Part shown: positions 27,461 to 57,379 of the stretch, piece by piece | Position numbering within the stretch: position 1 is the first letter of the stretch | Layout: each line of letters opens with the position of its first letter | Assembly: GCA_965230295.1 (NCBI GenBank) | Contig: OZ246001.1 | Location: 1,344,001-1,408,000 of the forward strand | Length of the DNA: 64,000 nt | Source of the DNA: Marinicella sp. | GTDB lineage: Bacteria; Pseudomonadota; Gammaproteobacteria; Xanthomonadales; Marinicellaceae | Direction of reading: 5' to 3' | The notes under the pieces: generated by a model | Told to the model about the DNA's origin: nothing | The model's database searches: none | The model's input: the letters and a program-made list of their open reading frames with translations, nothing else | Position numbers and translations under genes: made by a program

Positions 27461-28825
27461 ATGACCAAAGGATGGTTGATAAAAACAGCATTGATTTTAT
27501 TAACAGGTCTTTTGATAAGCCATGTATTCTCTTTATGGCCTGAAAGAAAACCAATCGAAGATCGGAGTCAACATAACCTTACCGTCAGCCAGCCTAATTT
27601 AGTTACCTTTCAGAATCCAACATCACGCCGCAAAACCAAACCTGAATCCATTCAACCAAAACAACTGGACTCAGTCGAGTCAGAACCGGTTTCAAACATT
27701 GACACCAATCAATCGACAGAAAACACCCAAGCTTTAAGTTTCCTTGCTGTTTACCGCATGTATCGACAGTGGCGAACATGTCGTGATTTTCATGACATCA
27801 TCAATGACACAGTGGTCTATGATGCCCGCAGTGAACTCGAAAACAGAGCAAGGCGCATCAACAACAAAGCCAACAACGCCCCATCAGAAGTACAAATTGC
27901 TGCCTTACACAACCATGCCATCATGTGTGTTCACATCTTTCAACAAGCCCAAAAAATGGACCTGCCAGATGCAGGGTTGAAGCCTGGTTCATCTTTATCT
28001 GAACCCCACTTAACCAGTAAGCGATTTTTACGTCATTTGCGCCAGTTGAAACCACAAAATGAACAAGAACAGGCCATAGCCAACGTTTTGCAGCTGACCC
28101 ATCAATGGAACGAAGCCTTCAAAACAGTGTTACAAGTGTTGGCCGGGAATGACAGCCAAAACCCGGATTTGATCGCAGCGTTGAATCAAGAGATACAATC
28201 ATTGCGCACAGAACAATTTAAATTGCTCCGACTGCAACAAGGCACCGATAAAAAGGATGAACCCAACGAAGAACTTTTCAAGCTTTTCTTGCAAATTGAG
28301 CAGAAAGAAAAAGAAATGCAGAAACTGTTGGTGGTGGATGAAACACAATTGAAATCTGCTTTGAGTGAATTTTCTGCAAGCAACAACACCTTGTATGATC
28401 AACTGACATCAAATAATCCGGATGTGTTTTACGAAGCACACACCACACTTGAGCGCAGCAGGAACTTGACTGATCTTGGCTTAAATATGCATAAAGAAAA
28501 CGAACTGAGAGAAACGAAAAGACTATTCGTGGAATACGTGCCACCTGAAGATATCTTGCTGCAATCCATGGAGTTCAACGAACCGATATGGCTGCGCTCT
28601 TTAATTCCGTATGCCACCCAATTATACACTTGTGAACTGGGCGCCGATTGTGGCCCTGACAGCGAGTGGATCAAGCACCACTGTTTCAATGGTTTCATGA
28701 CCTTGAATCCAAAAAGTTGTGATTCAGACCTGCAAACCTATTACCAGCAGCACCTGCTCAGTCCCAACCAGTGGCAAGATGTGCAATTGATATTGATGGC
28801 CATCAGGAATCTGTATGAAACTTAA
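27461..28825 (+). CDS. Membrane-anchored Cys-rich hypothetical protein A (coiled-coil insertion)
   Basis: N-terminal TM, low-complexity linker, C-terminal YATQLYTCELGADCGP motif; paralog of 29693-31045. Confidence 0.8.
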   Translation: MTKGWLIKTALILLTGLLISHVFSLWPERKPIEDRSQHNLTVSQPNLVTFQNPTSRRKTKPESIQPKQLDSVESEPVSNIDTNQSTENTQALSFLAVYRMYRQWRTCRDFHDIINDTVVYDARSELENRARRINNKANNAPSEVQIAALHNHAIMCVHIFQQAQKMDLPDAGLKPGSSLSEPHLTSKRFLRHLRQLKPQNEQEQAIANVLQLTHQWNEAFKTVLQVLAGNDSQNPDLIAALNQEIQSLRTEQFKLLRLQQGTDKKDEPNEELFKLFLQIEQKEKEMQKLLVVDETQLKSALSEFSASNNTLYDQLTSNNPDVFYEAHTTLERSRNLTDLGLNMHKENELRETKRLFVEYVPPEDILLQSMEFNEPIWLRSLIPYATQLYTCELGADCGPDSEWIKHHCFNGFMTLNPKSCDSDLQTYYQQHLLSPNQWQDVQLILMAIRNLYET

Positions 28826-29696
28826 ATTGACGATCCCGATAATGACTTTGTTTGGTCTCTGGCTGTTTTGGCTACTGCCAACCGACACTGAACTGTCACA
28901 ACAGCAGCAATCATCCACCCCCAATAAAATCAACCAACAAAAGGCTGAACCCACAACGCCAGAAAAGCCATCTACTACACAAGCTGTGCAGCTGGCCACT
29001 ACTGATAAGCAATTGGAAGCCATTCTTCAGGAGATACTTCCCATGCGCTTCAGCACTGATCCTTATATTGAATTGCATGCGTTAAGACAGGTGCTGTGGG
29101 CTTGTCATAAAGACTCTGAACCGATTGAATTGTTTAAAGTCTATGGTGAAATTCAGCAACCTCAACTCGATTGGCAAAAACGATTACAAGAAGTTTGTCT
29201 GAGTCATCGCCATCAGTATCCAACACTGCTCACTGAAATACCTGAACGCGAATGGCTCGCCAAAATAGAACCCCAAACATCTTTGGGGCACCGCATTAAA
29301 AACAAATCCAGGCTGTTGGACTCCAAAACCAGAAGGCAAGAAAATTTATATTTAATCAAAGCGGGAATCAACACCGAAAACAGTGCGCTGATCTTGAGAA
29401 ACAACCGAATGCTGGAGTACATCATGACCGACCCAACTGATTTTGCTCATGTGATCCAAAGTCAAGACTGGCGATATACCTACCAGGTGGTTGAACTGGC
29501 AACCACTTTGATAGCCTGTCGATATCAAAACGGCTTGGGCTGTGCGCCTGAGTCAGGTTTAATGATCGGCTATTGTGCACGCCGACCGGATTCATGTGGT
29601 TTCGATTTCATCACCTGGTTTCAAAACAATACGTTACCGGGCATGCAACTGGATGTAGAATTGATGCAGCAATATTTATTGGAATCCAATTCATGA
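28815..29696 (+). CDS. Membrane-anchored Cys-rich hypothetical protein B
   Basis: N-terminal TM; FSTDPYIEL; ACRYQNGLGC...CGFDF..WFQ..TLPGMQ.DVE; paralog of 31035-31958. Confidence 0.8.
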   Translation: MKLKLTIPIMTLFGLWLFWLLPTDTELSQQQQSSTPNKINQQKAEPTTPEKPSTTQAVQLATTDKQLEAILQEILPMRFSTDPYIELHALRQVLWACHKDSEPIELFKVYGEIQQPQLDWQKRLQEVCLSHRHQYPTLLTEIPEREWLAKIEPQTSLGHRIKNKSRLLDSKTRRQENLYLIKAGINTENSALILRNNRMLEYIMTDPTDFAHVIQSQDWRYTYQVVELATTLIACRYQNGLGCAPESGLMIGYCARRPDSCGFDFITWFQNNTLPGMQLDVELMQQYLLESNS

Positions 29697-31045
29697 AAAG
29701 CCTGCGGTCTTTTGTTTTCTTGTTGACAGTCATGATACTGCTATTGGCGCTATTTTGGTGGTCAGAAAGAAAGCAGGGTCAGCAACGGTCATTGAGCCAA
29801 CCCAATGTGGTATCCATGCAGACCGATGAGCCTGCCTCAACAGAAGAATCGGCATCCAATAAGCCAGCCACAACCCAACAAAGCGATGACACAATCAACG
29901 ATACAGCCATTGCCGAGCAGAACGAATCGACTCCTGAGAAAAAAGAACTCACTTATTTGGAGGTGTATCGGATGAATCGGCAGTTTGTTGCTTGCCAGGC
30001 TGAAATTTATCATTTAATCGAAGACCCCAATGACGACCCCATAAAAGTTTTACATAACAAACTGAATCGTTTAAGTGGTCAAAAACAAGTGCCATTAACG
30101 CCCACTCAACAGCAGATCAGCTCAGTAAACAAGCACCAGGAATCCTGCAGTCTGCTGTTAGAAACCATCAGAATCATGGATTTATCCCCTGAAATCACTG
30201 AGCAGGACAACAATGACAAGGCATTCAACCAAACCAAAGAACAACTGTATAACTTACTCAACGAAACCAAGCCAAAAACAACCAAAGAACAATCCATAGC
30301 AGCAGTGTTACAACTCAAAACACAGTGGCAAACACTGTTTAATGAAATCCTTGCCATATCAGAAGGTAGCGATCAAAAGAACAGTGATGCCATTGCTGAT
30401 TTGAACCGACAAGCCGGTCAATTAAAAACCACAATCAATCAACTTGTTGAAGAATTGAAACTGGCTACCGATACCGAATCATTGCAATTGGAATTGAATG
30501 AAGTTTCTAAGCAGTACGACCGGATTCAAGATGAAATAAAAGGTTTGTATTGGGTTGACACCGATGCACGAGATCAGTCCATTGCCCATTTCAATGTCAT
30601 CAATGATCAGCTTTTCAATCGTTTATCCAGTTTGGATCCAGATGTGTTTTACGAAACCCAAATGACTTTGGAAAAAAACGAGAACATCAAATATTTTGGT
30701 CATGCGCCCTATAAGGACATTGGTCTTTATGAGGCCAAAATGCCTTTTGTTGAATACGTTTCCCCAGGAGATGTGGTGATGCAAATATTGGACTTGCATG
30801 ATGATGAATTGTTTCGTTTGGTGATTCAATATGCCACCCAACTCTATCTTTGTGAATTGGGCGCCGACTGTGGGCCCGGCAGCACATGGATCAAGTACTA
30901 CTGTTTTCAGAGTTATAATGAAATTGACGCCAGGAGTTGTGATTTGGATTTGACCAGTTATTTACAAAACCACAGACTCAGCGAAAACCATTGGCAAGAT
31001 GTGATTTGGGTGCTTGAAACATTGCGAGGCCTGTATGGCCAATAA
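29693..31045 (+). CDS. Membrane-anchored Cys-rich hypothetical protein A'
   Basis: ATGA overlap with the previous stop; PDVFYE, FVEYV.P.D, YATQLYLCELGADCGP. Confidence 0.8.
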   Translation: MKSLRSFVFLLTVMILLLALFWWSERKQGQQRSLSQPNVVSMQTDEPASTEESASNKPATTQQSDDTINDTAIAEQNESTPEKKELTYLEVYRMNRQFVACQAEIYHLIEDPNDDPIKVLHNKLNRLSGQKQVPLTPTQQQISSVNKHQESCSLLLETIRIMDLSPEITEQDNNDKAFNQTKEQLYNLLNETKPKTTKEQSIAAVLQLKTQWQTLFNEILAISEGSDQKNSDAIADLNRQAGQLKTTINQLVEELKLATDTESLQLELNEVSKQYDRIQDEIKGLYWVDTDARDQSIAHFNVINDQLFNRLSSLDPDVFYETQMTLEKNENIKYFGHAPYKDIGLYEAKMPFVEYVSPGDVVMQILDLHDDELFRLVIQYATQLYLCELGADCGPGSTWIKYYCFQSYNEIDARSCDLDLTSYLQNHRLSENHWQDVIWVLETLRGLYGQ

Positions 31046-31958
31046 AATCTGGGTGCTGTTGTTACTTGCCTCTATCGGCTTGTTGTTGTGGGTGACCCTG
31101 TGGCCGACATCAGTATTCGAGCCCAACCCAACGAACCACCTCGACAGTGACTTGAAACCGGTTTCAACACAGTCAGATGTTGTTGCAGACGTTTCTGAAA
31201 AAACAGCGCAAACCATTGCACCTGAAACCAAAAACACGCCATCTGATGGGGCTGAAAAACTCGATCCATGGCAACAAAAAGTTCTGCAAGAAATCGACTC
31301 ACGCCTGTTCAGCGACGACCCTTATGTCGAGCTGTATTCATTGGAGTTTCTCGTTGGTCAGTGCCGAGATCAAGACATAGTTGAGCGATTGTTTGTAGGT
31401 AAAGGCCCCTTTTATCAATCACAACAGCAACTGGCCAAGAAGCTTCAACAACAATGCGCTGAACTGAGAACACAATACCAGGAGTATTTGAGTTTCCCAG
31501 AACATGAACAATTGATCCAGGCTTTTGAGCCGAACAGTCGCATGGGTCGATTGTTGAAACAAGTGAACAACCCCAATTTAACCCCATTGGATCGCAGTGA
31601 ATTGTCATCATCGATTCTAAAACAAGCCATCAAAGAACGAAACAGTTCGAGCTTGATGTACTCGGTGTTCATTGCCCGCTTTGGTTCATTGACCACCTTA
31701 CCCCTGGCTGGGGTGATCAATTCAAATGATCAAGATTATATCAATCAAATGTCCAGCATGGCTTTGATGATGATGGCTTGCCAGTACCAAGGTGGCCGCA
31801 CCTGTGAAAGCACCTCTTTTTACATGATCATCATGTGTTCACAACAGCCCGCTGCCTGTGGGTTGGACTTTCCCAGTTGGTTCCAAAAAACCACTTTGCC
31901 AGGCATGCAACGGGATGTGGAAAAGTTGATGACTTTTTTCTCACAATACGGCCAATAA
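31035..31958 (+). CDS. Membrane-anchored Cys-rich hypothetical protein B'
   Basis: N-terminal TM; FSDDPYVEL; ACQYQGGRTC...CGLDF..WFQ..TLPGMQRDVE. Confidence 0.8.
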   Translation: MANKIWVLLLLASIGLLLWVTLWPTSVFEPNPTNHLDSDLKPVSTQSDVVADVSEKTAQTIAPETKNTPSDGAEKLDPWQQKVLQEIDSRLFSDDPYVELYSLEFLVGQCRDQDIVERLFVGKGPFYQSQQQLAKKLQQQCAELRTQYQEYLSFPEHEQLIQAFEPNSRMGRLLKQVNNPNLTPLDRSELSSSILKQAIKERNSSSLMYSVFIARFGSLTTLPLAGVINSNDQDYINQMSSMALMMMACQYQGGRTCESTSFYMIIMCSQQPAACGLDFPSWFQKTTLPGMQRDVEKLMTFFSQYGQ

Positions 31959-34677: not shown

Positions 34678-34704
34678 AAAAGGCCGCAATCTGCGGCCTT
34701 TTTT
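34678..34704 (+). terminator. Rho-independent terminator, possibly bidirectional
   Basis: AAAAGGCCGCA-ATC-TGCGGCCTTTTTT. Confidence 0.88.
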
Positions 34705-34714
34705 ATATCCTTAA

Positions 34715-34880
34715 CGTAGGTTGGCGCTGAGCACAGCGAAGCCCAACATCAGATTGGAAACATCAAAATTATCTGATACCAAAAATCATGCACAATGAAT
34801 TCCCAAAAACAAAACTGATTGGCAATCCGTCAGATCATTAAAGAACATGTTGGGCTTCTCTGACGATCAGCCCAACCTAT
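34715..34880. repeat. GTAG-type REP inverted doublet (REPIN), left flank of the Rhs island
   Basis: CGTAGGTTGGCGCTGAGCACAGCGAAGCCCAACA ... TGTTGGGCTTCTCTGACGATCAGCCCAACCTA. Confidence 0.82.
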
Positions 34881-34907
34881 CTTGCTAACAAGATTCATTG
34901 CTTTAAA

Positions 34908-35216
34908 TTATTCATCAAAATAAGGCTCATGATCTACCCAGTAAATATCATACTTTTTACTAAGGCGTTTGATGAATGGCTCCAAGTTTGTAGCAATGTT
35001 TATTGCTTGAACAGAATCCATTCCATATACAGTAAACCCAGGCTCATTTATACCTTCAATAGATATATCACAAGCATAACAATCCTGACTTGGCTGATCA
35101 TTTTTATCAAACTCATTTGCATGATACGGCATACTTATTTTGATTGTAAATTCGCTTAAATTTGATATCCCCTTAATTGAGTAATATAGTTTCCTTACAG
35201 CAATTATACTTTTCAT
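34908..35216 (-). CDS. Putative Rhs immunity protein (resembles DUF6968)
   Basis: 102 aa, 5 nt downstream of the Rhs stop, AT-rich; IAVR...I..P...YACDI.I.G......YGMDSVQAI.IA pattern. Confidence 0.65.
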   Translation of the reverse strand: MKSIIAVRKLYYSIKGISNLSEFTIKISMPYHANEFDKNDQPSQDCYACDISIEGINEPGFTVYGMDSVQAINIATNLEPFIKRLSKKYDIYWVDHEPYFDE

Positions 35217-35221
35217 AACAT

Positions 35222-38200
35222 TTAATCTTCACTCATACATTGATCATACGCGTCTTGAGCTGCATGGAAACATGCAAACATTTTTCGATGACTTAAACCT
35301 GCACATGTAGCTAATATACTTTGTTTCAATGCCTCACAACTTTTTCTTTTATCGTTTTGGGCCTTACATTCTTCATCACAATTTTCATTATCTTCAGAAT
35401 CAGAAAAATAACCCCATGCTGCTGCAATTCCTAGGCCAACATATTTACAAGCATTAATAATAATGGCAGCATCACATGCTGGATTAATTGGCCCACCAAT
35501 AGCACATGATCCAAGAGTAGCTTCCGTTTGCGCTCCATTAGGGTCGAAATAATTTACAGGATTTCCTAAAACAAATGTATATGTATTCCATCCAGCAACT
35601 TGCCCAATCGGATCACTCTGCACATACCGACTCGTACCCGGATCATAATCCCTGAAGTAATTATAGTTCAAGCCTGATTCAGCGTCATAGTATTGTCCAG
35701 GGAAGCGCATATTGAATTCGAAATTGACCTGGTCACCATCCACATCTTCATCAGGTGCGGTGGTGCCGAAGGCATCAGATTCCCAGGACCAGATACGTAC
35801 ACCGGCATCATTGGTGATCCAGCGTGGGGTGTTCAAATGGTCGGTTTGGATGTAGTAAAAATTCTGATCACCCGAACTGCTGGTTTCTACCCTCGCCACT
35901 GGTCGGTTACCCAGCCAGATGGTTTCACGGTCCCACAGATGAGAACCAGGGATGTATGCTGATTCATGAACCAACTGACCCTGCTCATCATAGACAAACA
36001 AATAGTCTGTCCCATTGATTTTCTTGCGTATCCGCTGACCAATGCCATTATGAAAGTATTCAGCAATTGCATTTCTGCCCGTACCAAAATCTGACATGCG
36101 GTTGGCCTGATCGTATAACCAAGCATGGTCTCCCATGTCAGGTGCTGATAAAGTGTTACCATTGGCATCATAACCACGTGGTTTGACTGCACCCACATTC
36201 AACATTTTGTTACTGTTGGCATCAATGGTGTAATTGACTGTCGGGTTTATGCCTTCTTGTTTGCTGGTTCGGTTACCCAACTGATCATAAGTCAGTGTGG
36301 TTGACTCATGTGAGTCATAGGTCAATCGATCCAATGCATCGTAGGAGAAACCATCGTTGTTGGCGGTAAGCTCACGGGTGATTGTTGTGATGTTGTGGTT
36401 GTTATCATAAGCATAAGCCGCTGTCACATCGACACCGTAGTTATAATCAATCAAACGGTAACCATCATCGTAATTGGCGTTGTAGTTCTTACCATTACCA
36501 AAGTTGATGGACTTGACTGGGCCAAAGGGTAAGTAAGTCACCAGATCAACCACTGTTTCGGCCTGCCCATCAATGGTCGTGGTGATTTTCTGCACTTGAT
36601 TCAGATCATCATACTCATAAGTCAACTCCAACCCTGAGGGATATGTCATTTTTTCTATTCTGTTATAATCATCATAGTCATAATCCAGATCCAGGTTGTT
36701 GTAACCAGCATGGGTAAATGGGGTAAACCCACCTACCACCTGAATCTTGTTGGTTTGGTTCCCAAAACCGTCATAACTGAAAGTGGTAGAACCTGTTTGA
36801 TCCGTAAACGAAGACAACTGTCCGATGCCATTTGTGCCCTGATCATAGACATATGTGGTATCTAATGAATTGTCTGTATAGTCTATAAATGTGATGCGTC
36901 CTCTGCCATCGTAAGACATACCAACAGTCACACCTTTGGCATCGGTCTTGCTGGTCATGTTACCTGCTTCATCATAAACATAACTGGTGGTGCCCGTATC
37001 CGGACTGACCAACGTAATCAGATTACCAAAATCATCATAGTGATAGGTGGTGATGTTCCCTCTGGCATCGGTAACGGTTTTTACCCGCTCACCGGCATCA
37101 TATGTGAAACTGGTTGTGGTGTTGGCTGTAAGTGGATTGGTGCCTTGGTAATCTTGGTTAATCTGACTCAGCCGTTTTAATGTATCGTAACTGTATTCTG
37201 TGTTGACGCTATTGCCATTGGTTTGAGAATCCAGAGTGCCATTGCTGCCATAGTCGTAAGTTGTAGTCACTCCCGATTGTTGCATGGTGGCCAAAAAGTC
37301 ATAATCATCAAATGTTTGGATGATTTGTTTTTTCAATACATCATTCAGATCGTAGGTTCTTTCTCCCAGCTGATTGCCTTCGGTATCCAGCTCATATTCA
37401 ACATAGTTTCCTAACTGATCGGTCACTCGGGTCACCCGCAAAGCACCATCGTAGGTCAGGGTTAATGTGGTTTCTTCAGGTGAACCATAGTTTCGTTTCA
37501 CTGATTGGATATGACCGGTGGGTAAATAAGTAAACTGAGTTTGTATAATGGCAGTGGCATTATCACTCAAACTGCTCACATCCACACGATCCGTATCGGC
37601 ATCATAGAAATTGATTAAAGTAAGGCCGTTGGGGCGATCTTCAGACTTGATCTTGCCAGTGGCTGACCATTGGATGTTATCACGTTCAATAATGCCTGCT
37701 GGTCCTGTGACTTTCTCCAGGCGATTGCGGTTTTCCACCGGCAATGCGGTGTCAGCATAATACTGATACACGGTCTCATCCACATTACCGGGCCTTGGGC
37801 CATCCATGCGACTGATTTGATTGAACGGTCCGTTGTATTCATAGGTGGTGGTTTTGCTGATGGCTGTTCCATCAGGCTTGAAGCCATTGACTGTCATGGA
37901 AGTCATTTGGCCATTCAAATCATAAACATAGTTGGTGACTTTGTTATTGCTGCCATAAACCGAAGGTTCAGTGATTGATGTGACCTTACCGATAAAGCGT
38001 GAATCGTAAGTGTAATCGGTTCGGCGCGCATCTGTGGTACCAAAGGCTTCGATTTTATAAGCATATTGACCTTTTGAATCATAGTTGTAGTACTTGGTTG
38101 TAACTCCATCAACCGTCTTGCTGATTAAATCATTGGTCACAGGATCGTATTCAAATGAACTGTTGTCGTTAGAGCACGATGAACAGCCAGGACCCGTGAT

Positions 38201-39637
38201 GCTTTTGATCTGCCAGATGCCATTGTTTTGTTCCACTTCATAGGTACTGACTTTGCCACGTGAGTTGGTGACTTTTCGTTTGTTAGGTTCCCCAGGATAA
38301 AAGTCATAATCGATTTTTAATTCTTCAACATGCACATCCGGATCAGTCACATGGTGTTTTTCATAATTGGCCCGGTCTTCACTGTCATAACCATAGGTGG
38401 CAAATCGCTGGCCTACCTGGTTAATATCATGCCGATTGGTAATACCTGTTAATAAGAGCCTACTGCTGGTCTCGTAGTGGAACGATTTGATGGTGTTGTC
38501 TGGATATATAATTTCTTCTAACATATTTCTATCGGTGTAATTAAACCTCCATTCATTACCAACATGATCCGTTATGGTTTGTGGTTTAATTTCAAGGGAA
38601 CTGTTATTGCTGTATCCAAAGGTCACATAAGTGCCATCATCAGCAGTGATTTTATCTATCTTTGAACCACTTTCATACGTAATAGAAACTGTCCTACCAT
38701 TATCAACGACTTCAACCAATTTACCCCAAATGTCGTATTTTTCAATCTCACCTTGATTGGTGTGTAACACCCAGCCATCAACAGTTTGACTTAAAATTTC
38801 ACTCGATGAGGATTGGTTAACCCAAACACCATTTATCTTTTGGAAGAATACACCGCGACCTGTTTCTCGATATGCATAAATACTTTCAATACCATCAGCT
38901 AAGAAAGTACCTTGAGACATTTTTTTCGAGTAAGTATGGGTCCAACCTCGCCCCATAGGCAGACCATATAATGCGGACGATTTGGCTCTTGAAGAGTTAT
39001 AAAAAGCCGAAAAAGGAATTAAATCTGAGTTTAACTCTATATTTTCTTCATGAAACTTATTTCCTGTCGCTGTGTTGATGGGGTTACCTGCATTGGTTCC
39101 ACATTGATTGCCATCGTTTTCAGGATCATGCACTTTTTTACACATGAATTTACCCTGCGCAGTGACATACTCAGGCAACACACCACCAGGGCAGCCGACA
39201 GTACGGTTTTTTCTAATATTTAACGGCCCCGTGCCCGTAACACAATCAGTGGGATCTGAAAGTGACCATTGATGAAATTCAACTTTAATCCGTTTATTGT
39301 TTCTATGGGCAACACCATATACAAACTCTGGAAAATCTCGATACCCTCCACTACAGGATATTGGCCTTGGCTGTGGGTCGCCCTCAGGAGGAAAACCATC
39401 ATCTTCAATCTTAGTGGTTACCCCACAGTTGCTAGGATAAGCTACGTTCATTCCAGTATCTTCTGCTTCTCCGGCACTTGTAAAACCATATTTGGTATGT
39501 TCACAATTATGATATGAGTAATCCCAATTACCAATTATTAAATCAGTGTAACTTGTCTCAGCTGTAGCAGAACTCAATAAAATAGATTCAAGGATTAAGA
39601 AAAAGCAAGCATAAGTTTTGATGTTCATAATTTTCAT
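35222..39637 (-). CDS. Rhs/YD-repeat polymorphic toxin-like protein with a signal peptide and a Cys-rich C-terminal tip
   Basis: GNPINTATGNKF (DUF6531-like), many YxYD repeats, DHLNTPR, RFPGQYYDAESGLNYNYFRDYDP, DPIG...FDPNG cleavage motif. Confidence 0.95.
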   Translation of the reverse strand: MKIMNIKTYACFFLILESILLSSATAETSYTDLIIGNWDYSYHNCEHTKYGFTSAGEAEDTGMNVAYPSNCGVTTKIEDDGFPPEGDPQPRPISCSGGYRDFPEFVYGVAHRNNKRIKVEFHQWSLSDPTDCVTGTGPLNIRKNRTVGCPGGVLPEYVTAQGKFMCKKVHDPENDGNQCGTNAGNPINTATGNKFHEENIELNSDLIPFSAFYNSSRAKSSALYGLPMGRGWTHTYSKKMSQGTFLADGIESIYAYRETGRGVFFQKINGVWVNQSSSSEILSQTVDGWVLHTNQGEIEKYDIWGKLVEVVDNGRTVSITYESGSKIDKITADDGTYVTFGYSNNSSLEIKPQTITDHVGNEWRFNYTDRNMLEEIIYPDNTIKSFHYETSSRLLLTGITNRHDINQVGQRFATYGYDSEDRANYEKHHVTDPDVHVEELKIDYDFYPGEPNKRKVTNSRGKVSTYEVEQNNGIWQIKSITGPGCSSCSNDNSSFEYDPVTNDLISKTVDGVTTKYYNYDSKGQYAYKIEAFGTTDARRTDYTYDSRFIGKVTSITEPSVYGSNNKVTNYVYDLNGQMTSMTVNGFKPDGTAISKTTTYEYNGPFNQISRMDGPRPGNVDETVYQYYADTALPVENRNRLEKVTGPAGIIERDNIQWSATGKIKSEDRPNGLTLINFYDADTDRVDVSSLSDNATAIIQTQFTYLPTGHIQSVKRNYGSPEETTLTLTYDGALRVTRVTDQLGNYVEYELDTEGNQLGERTYDLNDVLKKQIIQTFDDYDFLATMQQSGVTTTYDYGSNGTLDSQTNGNSVNTEYSYDTLKRLSQINQDYQGTNPLTANTTTSFTYDAGERVKTVTDARGNITTYHYDDFGNLITLVSPDTGTTSYVYDEAGNMTSKTDAKGVTVGMSYDGRGRITFIDYTDNSLDTTYVYDQGTNGIGQLSSFTDQTGSTTFSYDGFGNQTNKIQVVGGFTPFTHAGYNNLDLDYDYDDYNRIEKMTYPSGLELTYEYDDLNQVQKITTTIDGQAETVVDLVTYLPFGPVKSINFGNGKNYNANYDDGYRLIDYNYGVDVTAAYAYDNNHNITTITRELTANNDGFSYDALDRLTYDSHESTTLTYDQLGNRTSKQEGINPTVNYTIDANSNKMLNVGAVKPRGYDANGNTLSAPDMGDHAWLYDQANRMSDFGTGRNAIAEYFHNGIGQRIRKKINGTDYLFVYDEQGQLVHESAYIPGSHLWDRETIWLGNRPVARVETSSSGDQNFYYIQTDHLNTPRWITNDAGVRIWSWESDAFGTTAPDEDVDGDQVNFEFNMRFPGQYYDAESGLNYNYFRDYDPGTSRYVQSDPIGQVAGWNTYTFVLGNPVNYFDPNGAQTEATLGSCAIGGPINPACDAAIIINACKYVGLGIAAAWGYFSDSEDNENCDEECKAQNDKRKSCEALKQSILATCAGLSHRKMFACFHAAQDAYDQCMSED

Positions 39638-39773
39638 GATTTTTATATTGATTAGTTATAAATTCGTACTCCACTCATTAGGCTCGCCATCTAATTTCAT
39701 TTATTTTCAAATTTTCTTGTCTTGCTGTATGATCAATCATATAAACTCAAGCAGTTTCAGCTTATTTTGATAT

Positions 39774-40322
39774 ATGGAAAAGACTTCACAAAATCCCAGA
39801 AAAATCGTTCATAACAATGAAATCAATGAGTTGATTGAGGCCACCATGAAAACCATTAAGTTGATGGCCAAAAGAAAAAAAAGAATCTACAACCAAAACA
39901 CTTTACAAACCACAGAAATCGTTCATGAAACCTATTTGAAGTTGGTTAAAAACCAAGCATCTAAATGGAATGACAAGACCCATTTTTTAATCACCTTTTC
40001 CCATGCCATGAAAAATTTATTGATTGATCGTTACAGAAAGAAAATGAGCATTAAAAGAGGTGAGGGTTTATTGGCTTTGGACATCGATTCAACTTCAGTG
40101 CAAATTGCCATGCCAGACCAATTGGCCTTAAATTGGATTGGTTTGGAAATGAAACTGACAGAACTGAAGAAAATTGACCCTGATGCCCACGATATCGTAC
40201 TACTGCGCTATTTTGCTGGTCTAGAAATAGCAGAAACTGCCTCAACTTTAAAGCTCAGCGAACGCTCAGTGAGTAGAAAATGGACTTTTGCCAGAACCTG
40301 GCTACATACCCATCTGGAATAA
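39774..40322 (+). CDS. ECF sigma factor of the STK-associated ECF43/TIGR02999-like type
   Basis: NTLQTTEIVHETYLKL, HF......M.NLLIDRYR....KRG, LRYFAGL...ETA..L..SERSV.R.W.FAR.WL. Confidence 0.88.
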   Translation: MEKTSQNPRKIVHNNEINELIEATMKTIKLMAKRKKRIYNQNTLQTTEIVHETYLKLVKNQASKWNDKTHFLITFSHAMKNLLIDRYRKKMSIKRGEGLLALDIDSTSVQIAMPDQLALNWIGLEMKLTELKKIDPDAHDIVLLRYFAGLEIAETASTLKLSERSVSRKWTFARTWLHTHLE

Positions 40323-40326
40323 ATAC

Positions 40327-42891
40327 ATGAACAAAGACACGCAAAAAATATTTGAACACCTGATCACTTTGGATGAATCAGAACAACAAAAATACATCGA
40401 TGAGACTTGCTCAAACGACCCAGAACTGAAAAAATTACTGAGCCAGTTATTAGCCACGCATAACAACTTAAATACTTATAACAGCGATCAAATAGAATCT
40501 GATTTAATAGCGGTTTTATCTGAAAACACTGAGGCAGAATTACCAGCTGAATCAAGTATAACCATCGACCACATCAACTTTAAAGGCTATCAAGTGATTC
40601 AAAAACTCGATTCCGGTGGTATGGGCGATGTCTTTTTATGTAAACCGACCAATAAAGACTTCAGTAATCAGGTGGCCATCAAATTGCTCAAAGCTGATTC
40701 AACAGAAGGACAATCAAAACAAAGGTTTTTACATGAACAAAAAATACTGTCGCGCTTAAAGCATCCCAATATTTCAACCTTTATTGATGCCAGTTTCACG
40801 TCTGATGAAAGGCCTTATGTGGTGATGGAGTATTGTGAAGGTGAGCCCATCATCTCTTTTTCAAACAACAATCAATTGAGCGTTAAGGAACGGATCGATA
40901 TTTTCTTGAAATTATGCGATGCAGTGCAATATGCCCATAACAACTTAATCATTCACAGAGACATTAAACCCAGCAATATTTTGGTTACACAAGATGACTT
41001 GAAATTACTGGACTTTGGTATTTCCAAAGCATTAGATGCGCAAGAAAAATTAACCCGAACAGGCCTCCATGCCATGACGCCTGCTTATGCCAGCCCTGAA
41101 CAGTTGGCAGGGAAAACAGTTAACTTGGCCACAGATGTATATTCATTGGGTGTGGTACTGTATGAATTACTGACTGAATCACGTCCGTTTTCAAATGAGA
41201 AACTAACACCAGCTCAATATGAAAGTGCAGTCAATAACATTGAACCTGAATTACCCAGCAAAAGAGTCAATTCAAATAAATTGAGTAAAGAGTTAACTGG
41301 TGATTTAGACTTGATTGTTGCCAAAGCCATCAGAGGTGATGTGTCCGAACGATTTAATAATGTCACTGAACTCAGTGATGAGTTAAAAAGGTATCAAGCA
41401 GGCTTGCCTATCAGAACCAATAAGTCCGGATACCCTTATTACATCAAGAAATTCATCAACAGACACAAAACTGCTGTGATGTTAAGTTCACTTTCACTGA
41501 TATCAATCATTTCATTGTTGGTCTTTACAGTTTTTCAAAACATAGAAATCACTTTACAAAAAGACAATGCCATTCAAGAGAGAAACAAAGCTCAAGTTTT
41601 ATCCGAAACATTCAGTCTGGCTTTCAAAAATGCCGACCCAACACAATCTTTTGACAAAGAAGTCACTGCTAAAGATGTACTTAAACAGGCCCAAAATTTG
41701 ATTCAGAACAAATCGAATATCAATGAAAACACAAAAGCTGGTCTAATTTTAGATATCACCAGTACTTATATAAATACTGGTAATTACCTCGAGGCACTGG
41801 AATTGTTAGATGATCCGTCTCTCAATCATGCTGAGCTTACTGAAAAAGAACAAATAAGGTATTACAGCCAAAAAATTAGATCATTACTGTCACTTCGGAA
41901 ACAAGAAAGTGCAATCGATGTTTATAACAAGATACCTGCATCATTGCGTACAAACGAATACATATTGTCTGCTTCTGCTTTTCTAGATGTTTCAATGGGC
42001 AAATACAATGAAGCAGAAGAAAAATATAAATTGTTGTATGAAACCTCTTCCCCTGAAAGCGATCATTATCTACAAAATTGTGTTAATTTTGTAAACGCTT
42101 TGGTCATTAAATTTGAAAACAAAGAAGCCATAAAGATAGCGACAGATTGCCTGGAAACATCTGAAGTAGACGTTTATGATCAAAGAAAGAAATGGGAGCT
42201 AAGTAGGCTTTACAATGAATTAGGACATGCTTATGGCTATGATAAACAATATGAATTATCTAATGAAACCTATTTTGAAGGTTTAGAAATAAGAAAAGCA
42301 ATACTTGATGAAAATCATCTTTTCGTGACTGACATGCATAATGCCATTGGCAGCAATTATTCACAACTTGGTGATTTTGACCTGGCGATGGAATACTATT
42401 TAGTGGCCCTGAATGGGACAATTAATCATTTTGGTGAAGGACACCCCAACACCTTTATGAACTTGTACAACATAGGTCTTGCCTACGGCCGTAATGAAGA
42501 TTACGAGACTTCAGAACAATATTTCTTAGAAATCATTAAACATCTAGATACGCCAGAAAAAAAAGAAGCCCTTAATATGGCCTTTGTTCATCATGCCCTT
42601 GGGTTAACTAGAGTCTCTTTAAATAAAATAGATGAGGCTATTGAATCTTTCGAAGTCAGCACAAAAATGTTTACCAAAGCTGGCTCTGGTTTTTTGAATA
42701 ATGCTGCTACATCTCAAACAGAACTTGCTAGTATTTACCTTAACAAAGGCCAATATGATATGTCTAAAAGGTATCTTGATAAAATTTTGCCAATTATTGA
42801 AAGTTTCAAAGAGCACCGTGATTATCAAAGGTATTTGGATGTAAAAAATGAATTTGATAAAACACAAGAAACTTTAAAAACTAATTCTTAG
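40327..42891 (+). CDS. Membrane Hanks-type Ser/Thr kinase with a periplasmic TPR sensor
   Basis: SGGMGDVF, VAIK, HRDIKPSN, DFG, MTPAYASPEQ, DVYSLG; one TM; TPR repeats. Start moved to 40327. Confidence 0.93.
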   Translation: MNKDTQKIFEHLITLDESEQQKYIDETCSNDPELKKLLSQLLATHNNLNTYNSDQIESDLIAVLSENTEAELPAESSITIDHINFKGYQVIQKLDSGGMGDVFLCKPTNKDFSNQVAIKLLKADSTEGQSKQRFLHEQKILSRLKHPNISTFIDASFTSDERPYVVMEYCEGEPIISFSNNNQLSVKERIDIFLKLCDAVQYAHNNLIIHRDIKPSNILVTQDDLKLLDFGISKALDAQEKLTRTGLHAMTPAYASPEQLAGKTVNLATDVYSLGVVLYELLTESRPFSNEKLTPAQYESAVNNIEPELPSKRVNSNKLSKELTGDLDLIVAKAIRGDVSERFNNVTELSDELKRYQAGLPIRTNKSGYPYYIKKFINRHKTAVMLSSLSLISIISLLVFTVFQNIEITLQKDNAIQERNKAQVLSETFSLAFKNADPTQSFDKEVTAKDVLKQAQNLIQNKSNINENTKAGLILDITSTYINTGNYLEALELLDDPSLNHAELTEKEQIRYYSQKIRSLLSLRKQESAIDVYNKIPASLRTNEYILSASAFLDVSMGKYNEAEEKYKLLYETSSPESDHYLQNCVNFVNALVIKFENKEAIKIATDCLETSEVDVYDQRKKWELSRLYNELGHAYGYDKQYELSNETYFEGLEIRKAILDENHLFVTDMHNAIGSNYSQLGDFDLAMEYYLVALNGTINHFGEGHPNTFMNLYNIGLAYGRNEDYETSEQYFLEIIKHLDTPEKKEALNMAFVHHALGLTRVSLNKIDEAIESFEVSTKMFTKAGSGFLNNAATSQTELASIYLNKGQYDMSKRYLDKILPIIESFKEHRDYQRYLDVKNEFDKTQETLKTNS

Positions 42892-42979
42892 ATTCGGATA
42901 ATAAGTGCAATTTAATCATGCAGCGAGTAATTCCACTTGCTGAACCAAAATAATTCGGAAAGTAAAAAAAAATGAATCC

Positions 42980-43139
42980 CGTAGGTTGGTGCTGAGGCAC
43001 GAAGCCCAACACCAGATCACAAATAATAGAAAAGCCTTAAAAAAGTTGCCCCAATAAAATTCCAACTCAAATTTACATTACAATTCATCAGGCCATTGAG
43101 GGTTGATGTTGGGCTTCTCTTACGATCAACCCAACTTAC
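42980..43139. repeat. GTAG-type REP inverted doublet (REPIN), right flank of the Rhs island
   Basis: CGTAGGTTGGTGCTGAGGCACGAAGCCCAACA ... TGTTGGGCTTCTCTTACGATCAACCCAACTTAC; same orientation as 34715-34880. Confidence 0.82.
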
Positions 43140-43154
43140 CTTGCTATTCCATCT

Positions 43155-43266
43155 TGTCATCCTGCGGCTAGACCGCTGGATCCAGCTATGAAATGTCATG
43201 TTTTTTTTACTGAAATGAAAATTGATTTTTACCTACCTGGATCCCGGATCGAGGTCCGGGATGACG
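43155..43266. repeat. GTCATCC...GGATGAC (CGTC-type) REP doublet
   Basis: TGTCATCCTGCGG...GGATCCAG and CTGGATCCCGG...CCGGGATGACG. Confidence 0.78.
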
Positions 43267-43437
43267 GGGACTGAAGTCCCCGCTCCAAGAATAAAATAGG
43301 AGCGTCGACTTCAGTCGACGTTATCTGTCAAAATGGAGATCTAATCGTTCACTGAGCGAAGCCGAAGTGAATTCTATAAAATCCAATTGGCTTCGACTCT
43401 CGCCTGTACTGAGCCTGTCGAAGTGCTCAGCCAGCGA
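43266..43437. repeat. Further REP-like units (GGGGACTGAAGTCCCC/GTCGACTTCAGTCGAC doublet; CTGAGC...CGAAG/CTTCGAC...GCTCAG doublet)
   Basis: Direct reading of the hairpins; related to 31974-32088. Confidence 0.72.
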
Positions 43438-43469
43438 CTGATATTTTTATGACTTTAAAGATATGAGAT

Positions 43470-53605: not shown

Positions 53606-56600
53606 TCAATCACAAGGATGGCCCATCAATTGGGTTAATCGAGTCACATCAATGGAGCCGGATGGAAAATTGCTTATGTTACTTTCCCATTGAAAAGTTG
53701 CTTGGGTATCATCAACTAATGTGAAACTTAAATCGCCCCAGTTAGACAGTGATAAATCTTCAGCGTTGAAGTTCGGAGGAAAATCTGCTCCGGCACCACT
53801 GATTGCAGTGATTTGAGCACTGTTACCAGTAATGGGACCGGTCCCAAGTAGCCAGTATTGTTCTCCATTCAAATAAGTATACCAAGCCAACAAAATATTT
53901 TGGTTAGAGCCATCATCTATCACATTAACCATCAGCCCATGCCCACTTTGATTCTGGTCATACCATGAACCGCTGTGACAAGAACGAATACCAGATGCAT
54001 CTGAATGGTCTGGAAAAATTTGAGTTATGCGCTCAATATTAAACCCGCCTGAAGCGTTTTCGAAGTAATCTGAAGACCAAGTTAATCGTCCTGTGGCTGC
54101 TGAATCAAAATACAATTTGATGGTGCCCCAGGAATGTATAACCACATCTTCAGAATTAAATCCTTCAACGGGAAATCCGGTTCCAGTAGTGATGTTCATG
54201 TCAATTTCTACATGGTTGTTTTCGACTTCGCCAACACCAATTAACCATACAGGCTTACCATCTAAATAGGTATACCAGGCTGCCAATATGGCTGGTGCGT
54301 TATTTTGTTCAATGATTTCAAGCTGTAGCCCATGGCCAGACTGTTCAGGGTTGTACCAATTACCACTGATTTGTTCGTCAATCATATATTCTGACTTACC
54401 ATTTGGGTAGTAAGTTCTTAAAGTACCACCACTCCAAACCAGCATGTTTTTGCCAGTCCAGACTGCTTTATGGTTTGCGGTGATTGCCGGAGCCCCAACT
54501 AAATCTGTTTCTACCCATGAATTGTTTGCAGGATTATATTTGCCACCATTTCTTGTTAGAGAAAAACGTCCAGGAACATTTTCTCCATCTCCACCCCAAA
54601 CGATCATTTCGTTCCCCGTCCAAACCGCAGTATGTGATTCTTTTGGACCCAGAAAATCTGGAGCCAATATTTCTTCTGTCATGTAATTAGATGGGTTAAA
54701 TTTATATCCAGTGACAGCGCCTTGTCTGGTGGTACCACCCCAAGTGATGAGTGAGTCATCAGCCCATACAGCAGTATGCTTGGCAGTGTGATATGGAAAA
54801 TCACCTTGGTATTCAATTTGTTGCCAACTGTCTGATTCAGGGTAATAAATAAAATTCTGGTTTAAAGCTCTGTTATCACGATACTCACCACCCCATATAA
54901 TCATTTCGTTGTTGGTCCACGTGGCTGTGTGGAAACGTCGTCCTTGAGGTGCATCTAGCACTGAAGTGGGTGTCCAAGTGTTGGAAAAAGGGTTAAACCT
55001 GCCGCCAGTATTGGTGTTTATACCTTCAGATCGTCCGCCCCAGACAATCATTTCTTCACCGGTCCATACGCTGGTGTGATTAATTCTGGCTTCAGGAGCT
55101 CCTTCTAAAGTAACTTCAGTCCAATTATTGGAGACAGGGTTGTAAATGCCACCAGTATTTAATCCATTCTCCCAGGTACCTCCTCCCCAAATGATCATCT
55201 CACTACCCGTCCAAACTGCAGTATGTAAATAACGTGGAGCAGGCGCATTGATGGTATTGATAGCTAACCATCGATCAGTAATTGGATCATATAACCCACC
55301 TGTATCGGCACCAATGTTGTAGTCAATTTGACCGCCCCATACAATCATTTCAGCACCAGTCCAGATGGTACTGTTATAGCCTCTATGTGCGGGAGAGCCA
55401 GGTGTTTCATTGGTCAAAATCCAGCTGTTATTAGTTGGATTGTAACGACCACCTGTGTTTGAATTACTACCACCCCAAACTATCATTTCGGTACCTGTCC
55501 AAACAGCAGAATGATCACTTTTTCGAATTGGGGCTCCCGCCGCAGTGACGGATCGCCATTGGTTCATCTCAGGGCTGTATACGCCACCAGATATTTCATT
55601 TGAACTTCCATTATGTCCACCCCATGTAATCATTTCATCGCCTGTCCATATTAACGTGTTGTAGCTGCTTGTCGGTGGTTGGTTTTCGATTGACATCTGA
55701 GTCCAGGTGTCTGTAATTGGATTATAAACGCCTCCAAAACGGTGCGAGGATGCACTGCTGGAGCTGCCCCAAATCAGCATTTTGTCACCGGTCCACACCG
55801 CATGATGTCGATATCGGGCTGCTGGTGCATTTGCCTTTGATATCGATTCCCATCTGTCTTGTGTCAAGTTGTATTTTGCACCCGATTCAAGATAGCCATT
55901 GGACTCACCACTTCGGTCTCTTCCGCCCCAAATAATCAACTCCGTTCCTGTCCATACTGCAGCACTGAAGTCCCTTAGGGAAGGTGCATTTTCATGACTT
56001 ATTGCCCGCCAACTGTTGGTCACAAAATCATAAATATGGCCGTGGTCCGGCTCATAATTAAAAGCGAATCCATCCCAAATGATCATGTACCTTCCTGCTG
56101 CAAAAGCTTGATGATATGAACGGGGGCTGGGTGCATTTTCAAGGTTTAGATCAGACCATGAATCATCATTAGGGTTATATAGTTTTCCATCCTGAAAATA
56201 ACCATCATAATTATTGCCACCCCAAACAACCATCTGTGAACCTGTCCAAATCGCACTGTGATAAACCCTGCCTTGAGGAGCGTTTTCTAAACTGATTGGC
56301 ACCCAACTGTCAGTAATCGGGTTGTATTTAAAACCGTCCTGATGAAAAATCAAATCGCTACCACTGCTGACACCACCCCAAATAATCATTTCTGAACCAG
56401 TCCAAATGGCAGTGTGGCCATATCTGGGTTCGGGAATGAAAGTTTGCCATTCTCCTAATTCATTGTTCAAATCATTCAATTTGGATTTCTTTTTGAGAGG
56501 GAAGTCATTCAACCTGAGCTTATGAGCAAGCCCTTTAATGCGGATTGTATTAACAGCTTTTTCTGTAGAGAGCCACCATTGATCAAACAACTTTTTACCC

Positions 56601-57379
56601 CAGCTTTCTATTTCAACTACAATCCATTCATTGGTTGACTTAATTAATTTTTCGGTAAAAAAGAAATCAGTGGTTTCTTGTAAAGGCAACATGTCATCAT
56701 TTAATTGCGCATTAAGGACAGTGAGTTTTTTGTGGAAGTCTTCCTCAGGCAGTTCTTTCACATCAAACAACGCTTCCAAAGACTGAGTTTGACTGTTTTC
56801 TAAGTGGTATTTAAACTGATAAATCACACTTTCAGGACTGTCACTATTCAGGCTGGATTTGGAAGATGACCTGACTTGATTGATTGTTTGTTTCAGTGAT
56901 GTATTTTCCTGATTATGGCTTTGGTAATATTTTCGGATGTTTCGCTCAACAAGATAAGGTCTGGAAATACATTCAGCAATTGTATTTGGGTCATTATTCA
57001 ACAATTGAAACAAGGCTTTTAAGTGTTCAGTGTCTTGACTTCTCCTGATCATTCTATCCAGATCCTCTTGTAATGAGTCAAGAGTAATTTCTACTTGATA
57101 CAATTCAATCAATGCCTGTTCCATTTTTACAGACTTTAAAACTTTGTCAGTTAATTTTTGAATTTTTAAATTAACATTTGAACTCGTTTTGGTGGTGTTC
57201 TTTGTCAGGTTCTGAATTCTTAATTCTTGATAAAATGCTTCAATTTCTTGCTGACAAATAACACGCTGAGCGATGTAATCATCGTTGGATAGTTTATGCC
57301 ATTGTGATTTTTCAGCGTAAGCTTGATTGAACGCAAATAAAGTAATCAGTAACGCAGCAATCCTAAGTAATCTGATCAT
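53606..57379 (-). CDS. Large secreted Kelch-repeat protein (14 blades) with a duplicated C-terminal beta domain
   Basis: Signal peptide AYA-E; 14 x H.AVWTG.EMI.WGG...GG.YNP..NSW; two repeats beginning SG.WY...QSGHG. Confidence 0.88.
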   Translation of the reverse strand: MIRLLRIAALLITLFAFNQAYAEKSQWHKLSNDDYIAQRVICQQEIEAFYQELRIQNLTKNTTKTSSNVNLKIQKLTDKVLKSVKMEQALIELYQVEITLDSLQEDLDRMIRRSQDTEHLKALFQLLNNDPNTIAECISRPYLVERNIRKYYQSHNQENTSLKQTINQVRSSSKSSLNSDSPESVIYQFKYHLENSQTQSLEALFDVKELPEEDFHKKLTVLNAQLNDDMLPLQETTDFFFTEKLIKSTNEWIVVEIESWGKKLFDQWWLSTEKAVNTIRIKGLAHKLRLNDFPLKKKSKLNDLNNELGEWQTFIPEPRYGHTAIWTGSEMIIWGGVSSGSDLIFHQDGFKYNPITDSWVPISLENAPQGRVYHSAIWTGSQMVVWGGNNYDGYFQDGKLYNPNDDSWSDLNLENAPSPRSYHQAFAAGRYMIIWDGFAFNYEPDHGHIYDFVTNSWRAISHENAPSLRDFSAAVWTGTELIIWGGRDRSGESNGYLESGAKYNLTQDRWESISKANAPAARYRHHAVWTGDKMLIWGSSSSASSHRFGGVYNPITDTWTQMSIENQPPTSSYNTLIWTGDEMITWGGHNGSSNEISGGVYSPEMNQWRSVTAAGAPIRKSDHSAVWTGTEMIVWGGSNSNTGGRYNPTNNSWILTNETPGSPAHRGYNSTIWTGAEMIVWGGQIDYNIGADTGGLYDPITDRWLAINTINAPAPRYLHTAVWTGSEMIIWGGGTWENGLNTGGIYNPVSNNWTEVTLEGAPEARINHTSVWTGEEMIVWGGRSEGINTNTGGRFNPFSNTWTPTSVLDAPQGRRFHTATWTNNEMIIWGGEYRDNRALNQNFIYYPESDSWQQIEYQGDFPYHTAKHTAVWADDSLITWGGTTRQGAVTGYKFNPSNYMTEEILAPDFLGPKESHTAVWTGNEMIVWGGDGENVPGRFSLTRNGGKYNPANNSWVETDLVGAPAITANHKAVWTGKNMLVWSGGTLRTYYPNGKSEYMIDEQISGNWYNPEQSGHGLQLEIIEQNNAPAILAAWYTYLDGKPVWLIGVGEVENNHVEIDMNITTGTGFPVEGFNSEDVVIHSWGTIKLYFDSAATGRLTWSSDYFENASGGFNIERITQIFPDHSDASGIRSCHSGSWYDQNQSGHGLMVNVIDDGSNQNILLAWYTYLNGEQYWLLGTGPITGNSAQITAISGAGADFPPNFNAEDLSLSNWGDLSFTLVDDTQATFQWESNISNFPSGSIDVTRLTQLMGHPCD

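Follow-up and report, generated by a model that had tools for sequence, protein, structure and literature searches.

In ECF43 sigma factors, a group of extracytoplasmic function (ECF) sigma factors, the consensus QTTA replaces the acidic DAED motif (PMC13147305), and a threonine is phosphorylated by a co-encoded Hanks-type kinase, supplying the charge for RNA polymerase binding (PMC13147305, PMC8999054). EcfK of Xanthomonas citri carries QATE (PMC13147305) and additionally uses a threonine in its linker (PMC13147305, PMC8999054), and EcfP of Vibrio parahaemolyticus, a sigma factor without DAED, carries STTA with a threonine at the matching position (PMC8999054). Few ECF43/kinase pairs have known outputs, namely a type VI secretion system (T6SS) for Xanthomonas and resistance to polymyxin for Vibrio. 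Here, we analyzed a 64,000-nt stretch of the Marinicella sp. genome (contig OZ246001.1, positions 1,344,001–1,408,000; hereafter, the window), in which an ECF43-type sigma gene and a Hanks-type kinase gene diverge from an rhs gene followed by a small gene. On balance, we lean towards reading the locus as a cue-gated four-gene cassette that couples a kinase signal pathway to an Rhs toxin operon. The genome is a single 4.008-Mb contig with 44% GC and a completeness of 97.9%. Throughout, G000 denotes this genome, Gnnn:Cn a relative genome and its contig, Lnnn an excised locus, and P0001 the 102-aa protein encoded by the small gene. An earlier reading of this DNA from its letters alone (the sequence-only reading) had reported the four genes and the gap that the two operons share, and re-reading the open reading frames (ORFs) reproduced this layout exactly (Table 1).

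The sigma factor was assigned with TIGR02999 and PF07638, which stood in for the ECF Hub group Hidden Markov Models. It scored 143.2 bits against TIGR02999 (cut-off 126.15), and its PF07638 match spanned residues 18–181, the full length of the protein. At residues 45–48 it carries QTTE, aligned by eye with the DAED position of region 2.2 from the flanking IVHETY pattern, and this motif was unchanged in all eight aligned orthologues. T47 of QTTE is the predicted phospho-acceptor, and a Ser/Thr cluster, DSTS, lies in the linker within residues 96–120. Neither the four cassette genes nor 15 scanned flanking ORFs contained an anti-sigma domain. Because the TIGR02999 score lies above its cut-off, the PF07638 match is full length, QTTE is invariant, a Hanks kinase is co-encoded and no anti-sigma domain is nearby, the predicted ECF43 identity is well supported. 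The sequence-only reading had likewise called the sigma ECF43-like, with QTTE in place of the acidic motif and no adjacent anti-sigma gene, and it held up in each of the tests that were run (profile, motif, and co-encoded kinase without anti-sigma). In a scan of a genome collection, 29 of 31 related sigma loci had a kinase match; of the two others, L099 is cut off by the contig end within the sigma gene, and L120 has no more than a fragment of a kinase, on the opposite strand.

The kinase also agrees with its description in the sequence-only reading, a protein with one transmembrane segment and an array of tetratricopeptide repeats (TPRs). Counted from the TTG at 40288, the Pkinase domain lies at residues 101–356, with the catalytic motifs GGMGDV at 110, VAIK at 129, HRDIKPSN at 223 and DFG at 242, and matches to TPR families lie at ~623–751 (Pfam/NCBIfam). 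A single hydrophobic segment was found, in 19-residue windows starting at 394–405. Because there is one helix, preceded by basic residues, the TPR-rich region is predicted to face the periplasm.

These features place the locus close to EcfK/PknS, which comes from the same bacterial order and with which it shares a Q-x-T-E sigma motif (QATE in EcfK, QTTE here) and Ser/Thr residues in the linker (PMC13147305). The kinase, likened to PknS by the latter's published description, follows the same plan of N-terminal extension, kinase domain, one helix and periplasmic TPRs, and the genes for EcfK and for the sigma described here each adjoin an antagonism system (PMC13147305, PMC6653060). EcfK/PknS, however, controls a T6SS, whereas the neighbour here is one Rhs operon with a Sec-type signal in a genome devoid of T6SS markers. 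EcfP resembles the present sigma in the replacement of DAED and in the threonine at the matching place, within STTA (PMC8999054), but QTTE, like the EcfK motif, still contains one acidic residue, and the output of EcfP/PknT is polymyxin resistance, whereas the output proposed here is a toxin.

With the T6SS PAAR-Rhs effectors, the 1471-aa Rhs protein shares the DUF6531 domain, the YD shell and Rhs core, a tip that varies and a small downstream gene; unlike them, it has no PAAR domain and starts with a Sec-like N-terminus followed by a Cys-rich domain. Pfam and NCBIfam searches detected RHS_repeat (5.6e-30), DUF6531 and Rhs_assc_core, and the TIGR03696 core (5.9e-21) closes with a DPxG-type end ahead of the variable tip. 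The protein's sole hydrophobic window is N-terminal and ends in SATA/ET, which gives it the look of a Sec signal peptide. None of the T6SS markers TssC (PF05943), Hcp (PF05638), PAAR (PF05488) and TssK (PF05936) was found across the whole G000 genome, which bears out the proposed T6SS-independent setting as far as these four families go and sets the Rhs protein apart from T6SS effectors. WapA of Bacillus subtilis is a Sec-exported Rhs/YD polymorphic toxin with an immunity protein and no T6SS; its host has a single membrane, whereas here an outer membrane must be crossed as well. To our knowledge, WapA is not under kinase–sigma control. Our literature search found no description of an ECF sigma factor and Hanks kinase tied to an rhs gene, in line with the sequence-only reading, which knew of no such description. 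The switch is already known, and the proposed Rhs output and the cassette form are new.

The proposed pathway would begin with the TPR region of the kinase reading a cue outside the cytoplasm. The kinase would then phosphorylate the ECF43-type sigma, probably at T47 of QTTE and perhaps also at Ser/Thr residues of the linker, and the added charge would allow the sigma to bind RNA polymerase. The holoenzyme would start at a private promoter just 5′ of rhs and transcribe rhs together with the small gene, while the sigma–kinase operon would be driven by an ordinary sigma-70-like promoter. Because the genome lacks a T6SS, Rhs would be exported via Sec; its shell would hold a small, Cys-rich toxin tip, and the DUF6968-like product of the small gene would guard the producer. 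We infer sigma control of rhs transcription from the recurrence of the gene adjacency and from a suggestive promoter motif, both described below, and we likewise infer phosphorylation, promoter use, the cue, the route through the outer membrane and toxic activity.

The adjacency recurs within the family Marinicellaceae. Searching 44 genomes of this family with the Rhs protein yielded 15 matches at E 1e-80 or better, of which five could not be judged (three fragments and two with a contig end on the 5′ side). At six of the ten readable loci, a sigma and a kinase gene adjoin rhs: four are divergent, as in the window, and two are tandem (G022:C5 and G021:C22), with sigma, kinase and rhs in that order on one strand. 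The tandem-type sigmas also carry QTTE. Approached from the sigma side, a profile of five orthologues (at least 184 bits) applied to 401 genomes of the order delineated an orthogroup of ten loci. A divergent rhs was present at four of them (G000, G017, G021:C84 and G192:C7), and a gene for a 1163-aa RTX protein took the divergent position at a fifth (G192:C32). At this last locus (L090:6524-14555), two more genes follow the RTX gene, the first encoding a 712-aa product that contains an S74 chaperone domain and the second a 739-aa product with PMP repeats. G117:C62 (L088, L089) carries a tandem duplicate of the sigma–kinase pair, with equal sigma-profile scores and three ~245-aa ORFs without Pfam matches in between.

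Phylogenetic analysis of the kinases indicated that the four Rhs-linked members of the divergent type do not form one clade (AU test, p = 0.0002); they fall into two subclades, starred in the tree, each of which also holds one member lacking rhs. Because the divergent-type Rhs-linked kinases are not monophyletic, the Rhs link appears either to have persisted through deep divergence or to have arisen more than once. Searches by tblastn found no rhs remnants in six Rhs-less loci of orthologous sigma–kinase pairs. The tandem-type kinases, joined by a G000 paralogue, make up a starred clade of their own, and the two layouts correspond to two kinase lineages. Outside the family, none of 20 Rhs loci from the rest of the order showed the link within 1.5 kb, nor did any of 19 sigma loci in a metagenome scan; in the genome collection, three of 31 sigma loci were linked, all three being Marinicellaceae loci already counted, leaving none among the other 28. 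The Rhs/sigma–kinase coupling is therefore confined to Marinicellaceae. The sequence-only reading had proposed conservation of the adjacency in relatives as a check, and this expectation stood within the family, at six of ten readable loci.

A promoter motif accompanies the linked loci. When the intergenic regions were aligned, TG(G/T)C(C/G)-N18-CGA emerged as a possible motif on the rhs strand, giving a candidate ECF-type promoter in the window (Table 1). The tandem loci, which were found later and in which only the rhs direction is sensible, carry TGACAAGGT with CGA or CGT at equal spacing; a loose pattern fixed before they were seen matched one of the two. In the relaxed form TGNC-N19-CG(A/T), the motif points at rhs in six of six linked loci; from its end to the rhs ATG there are 26–37 nt in five loci and 93 nt in the other. 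Its chance occurrence was 0 to 2% per shuffled 150-nt region, and nine Rhs-less control regions contained one match. Genome-wide, the strict pattern had 235 matches, 11 of them intergenic and two within 150 nt upstream of a same-strand gene, and one of these two genes was rhs. These data are suggestive of a private ECF-type promoter directed at rhs. No shared motif was found upstream of the other nine G000 sigma genes, nor an autoregulation motif upstream of the two tandem-type sigmas. For the sigma–kinase operon, the window offers one sigma-70-like candidate (Table 1), and TTGAAA-17-TATxxT-like sites were seen by eye upstream of the G021 and G003 orthologues. We found no ECF43 promoter motif in the literature accessible to us, and the supplements of PMC7826278, with their per-group descriptions, may hold one.

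Table 1 Features of the cassette and related genes. Coordinates are window positions unless residues or contig positions are indicated.
Feature	Position	Strand	Basis or remark
Small gene, 102 aa	34908-35216	-	ORF
rhs, 1471 aa	35222-39637	-	ORF; stop 5 bp before small-gene start
Rhs N-terminus, signal-peptide-like	~residues 1-26	-	Sole hydrophobic window of Rhs
Rhs N-domain, Cys-rich, 7 Cys	~residues 28-183	-	Sequence
Rhs DUF6531	residues 184-261	-	Domain match; YD/RHS shell follows
Rhs core	residues 1288-1368	-	TIGR03696
Rhs C-terminal tip, 100 aa, Cys-rich, 9 Cys	~residues 1369-1471; DNA 35225-35533	-	Sequence
rhs/sigma intergenic gap	39638-39773		136 bp
Candidate ECF-type rhs promoter, TGGCGAGCCTAATGAGTGGAGTACGA	39664-39689	-	Motif only; ends 26 nt before rhs ATG
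Sigma-70-like promoter candidate for sigma–kinase operon, TTCAAA-16-TATGAT	39706-39733	+	Scan overall no richer than shuffles
ECF43-type sigma gene, 182 aa	39774-40322	+	ORF
Hanks-type kinase ORF	40288-42891	+	TTG at 40288; likely ATG 40327, 4 bp past sigma stop
Hanks-type Ser/Thr kinase	40327-42891	+	N-terminal extension, kinase domain, one membrane helix, ~440-aa TPR-rich C-terminal region
Inserted DNA, ~8.7 kb	34703-43469 (approx.)		GC 0.394 vs 0.449 in window; empty sites
Terminator-like palindromic hairpin, left insertion edge	34678-34702		11-pair stem, then T run
Direct repeat, imperfect, ~170 bp, left copy	34715-34887	+	Near left end of cassette
Direct repeat, imperfect, right copy	42980-43146	+	Near right end of cassette
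REP-like GC-rich palindromic stretch	43150-43330		Just inside right insert end
Paralogous sigma genes	G000:C1: 1522272, 1600254, 1159942, 3451110, 3246864, 2290581, 2031902, 2520369, 3157254		

The cassette resides in a low-GC insert that contains the four genes, repeats, a REP-like stretch and nothing else. In two relatives, on contigs G017:C16 and G012:C198, the site is empty, the flanking 178-aa gene and AHSA1-like gene being directly adjacent; the hairpin of the left insertion edge, AAAAGGCCGC...GCGGCCTTTT, is also present in the 88-bp and 76-bp gaps, respectively, of these empty sites. The two direct-repeat copies share a 41-nt block (90% identity) and a ~40-nt block (87%), both spaced 8.26 kb apart, and blastn against the genome gave only one further partial match. 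G017 possesses a cassette with a 78% identical kinase at another place in its genome, beside a cobalamin adenosyltransferase gene. Copies of the REP-like element (30–34 nt, 88–93% identity) occur at seven other genomic places. No recombinase gene was detected in or beside the insert, and no tRNA gene that could serve as an integration site was detected in the 64-kb window. Since the insert is low in GC, carries repeats at its ends, is absent from two empty sites and has its G017 counterpart at a different place, it is well supported that the four genes behave as one inherited, mobile unit. The claim of a self-contained four-gene unit thus gained support from the insertion and its two empty sites. 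A broader proposition, which we put forward only tentatively and doubt as a whole, is that mobile Marinicellaceae cassettes move as whole units between chromosomal sites without a recombinase of their own, that their phospho-activated ECF43 sigma serves essentially a single private promoter, that of the operon of a Sec-exported Rhs toxin, and that two kinase–sigma lineages and two gene orders have retained or re-established the link. On this reading, the cassettes would hold the first polymorphic toxin whose transcription is gated by sigma-factor phosphorylation, and would be a natural, one-promoter orthogonal sigma switch.

Mobility also underlies the main rival to the regulatory reading, one we consider unlikely though the strongest of its kind: the two gene pairs would merely share mobile or variable DNA and be transferred together, the targets of the sigma would lie elsewhere, and the rhs promoter would be unrelated to it. 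An insertion bounded by repeats could produce linkage by joint transfer, and characterised ECF43 regulons extend past their neighbours, polymyxin resistance under EcfP being an example (PMC8999054). Several results weigh in the same direction, against sigma control of rhs. Five of the ten sigma-orthogroup loci have no adjoining rhs or other large secreted gene, four of the ten readable Rhs loci of the subfamily have no sigma–kinase pair, and a single one of the ten sigma–kinase pairs in G000, that of the window, adjoins an rhs. Generic tests of intergenic conservation across three genomes were not significant: counting identical columns, 200 of 200 dinucleotide shuffles reached the observed value, and with information weighting 85 of 176 did. 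The final CG(A/T) form of the motif was chosen post hoc with all six loci in view, and G000 and G017 are close kin, which leaves about five independent cases. Part of the motif region, GGACAT and a T run, also occurs upstream of the G003 sigma, at a locus without rhs, and could therefore serve the sigma operon instead. A search for RNA runs covering the locus found none. Two further points bear on the toxin itself. P0001 has no signal peptide while the tip of Rhs is Cys-rich, an uncommon pairing among toxins with a site of action outside the cytoplasm. Moreover, we know of no route across the outer membrane for a Sec-exported Rhs protein.

Co-transfer alone, however, sits poorly with a link seen in two gene orders and two kinase lineages. 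Linked cassettes occupy different chromosomal sites, with different flanks in G000, G017 and G192, and linked pairs include kinases that are just 32–36% identical. The directional motif precedes rhs in six of six linked loci against one match in nine controls, and rhs is among the two genes that the strict pattern precedes genome-wide. Regulation of rhs by the adjoining sigma thus remains the reading we prefer.

A second alternative, which we regard as improbable, reverses the logic: the TPR region of the kinase would sense exported Rhs, or the damage done by such toxins, in a feedback or defence circuit that, for example, raises immunity under attack. TPR arrays usually bind proteins, and an Rhs protein with a Sec signal would pass through the very compartment that the TPR region is predicted to face. 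The Rhs N-domain and the sensor region of the kinase are, in addition, both strongly divergent between loci; between G000 and G192:C7, the Rhs shells share 51% identity over 1209 residues, and the N-domains and tips are unrelated. A dedicated Rhs sensor nevertheless fits poorly with the occurrence of the same sigma lineage beside an RTX protein and housekeeping genes, and the known ECF43 kinases answer outside cues, amoebae and polymyxin (PMC13147305, PMC8999054).

Sigma–kinase pairs are in fact common across the order, with kinase matches at E 1e-60 or better in 39 of 41 genomes. G000 alone encodes ten ECF43-like sigmas, nine of which exceed the TIGR02999 cut-off while one falls slightly short, and each adjoins a gene for a TPR kinase of ~850–960 aa; two further, weaker sigma-like matches also adjoin kinases. 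One paralogous pair diverges from a gene for a 1306-aa NHL/Big_9/cadherin-like protein, 105 bp from the sigma gene (G000:C1:3153229-3157149; L057:9230-13150), and another from a gene for a 547-aa FG-GAP protein, beside an endonuclease I gene (G000:C1:2288610-2290253; L054:7611-9254). The remaining pairs adjoin housekeeping genes. The NHL/Big_9/cadherin-like and FG-GAP proteins look secreted, and adjoining secreted proteins may be a common output of such pairs.

The small gene was examined as the candidate immunity gene. P0001 has no hydrophobic segment and reached 21.6 bits against DUF6968 (PF22302), under the Pfam gathering cut-off of 27. Its family comprises 104 cluster representatives; 31 of 60 members scanned matched DUF6968 (E up to 0.001), and a relative in G393 scored 66.4 bits. 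Because its own score is sub-threshold while its relatives match, P0001 is best classed as a distant DUF6968 relative by sequence, and not as a scored member. Family members occur in seven of the 401 genomes of the order and lie directly 3′ of an Rhs end in six of these seven, and the last 39–67 residues of the Rhs tip recur upstream of P0001 relatives in two of these genomes. This pattern is as expected of a cognate toxin–immunity pair, and an immunity role for P0001 is likely, which supports the downstream immunity gene of the sequence-only reading. The AF2 model of P0001 (pLDDT 92.7) had no PDB match by Foldseek at E 0.001 or better, and a complex prediction of the Rhs tip (residues 1365–1471) with P0001 scored 0.03. 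A literature search for DUF6968 returned no paper. At a tandem-type locus, a ~68-aa ORF with two hydrophobic stretches, read by eye, lies 3′ of rhs (L161:4100-5250, from G022:C5) and may encode a membrane immunity protein; a run of N stands beyond it on the downstream side.

When compared with proteins about as long as itself, the tip showed a single relative (57% identity), neither it nor the N-domain matched anything in Pfam at E up to 5, and the tips of four loci are all small and Cys-rich. That Rhs is a surface or adhesion protein, with a small gene unrelated to immunity, is the least probable alternative that we weighed: the tip has no Pfam family, no Atlas match at 0.9 or above and no identified toxic fold, and paralogous G000 pairs stand beside large adhesin-like proteins (NHL, Big_9, cadherin, FG-GAP), but polymorphic toxins are built as this protein is, with a complete core, a DPxG-type end and then a variable tip, orthologous shells carry different tips, and the small-gene family tracks Rhs 3′ ends in six of seven genomes and is found together with the same end of the tip.

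All six Rhs-core proteins of G000 start with a hydrophobic, signal-like N-terminus, as do two Rhs proteins that belong to other families within the order. Since these proteins share such N-termini, Rhs proteins with predicted signal peptides make up a wider class in the order. Three giant ORFs of 3164, 1360 and 3699 aa lie at G000:C1:926769-951622; the 3164-aa and 1360-aa ORFs each combine an Rhs core with a signal-like N-terminus, and no sigma–kinase pair is nearby. Elsewhere in the window, positions 53606-57379 (minus strand) encode a 1257-aa protein made up mostly of Kelch and beta-propeller repeats, and four consecutive ORFs of 454, 293, 490 and 314 aa (27461-31958, plus strand) matched no Pfam family at E 1e-4 or better.

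The control and export of T6SS-free Rhs toxins in two-membrane bacteria are poorly known, and the cassette presents a compact case, in which a single kinase and sigma are paired with a single candidate promoter and toxin operon. If the proposed coupling is true, the reach of sigma-factor phosphorylation would extend to regulating toxins directed at other bacteria or at predators, and the cassette would help to find out what TPR kinases of this sort sense. It would also point to a class of signal-peptide Rhs proteins that is wider in the order. In addition, the DUF6968 family gains a likely role in Rhs-linked immunity.

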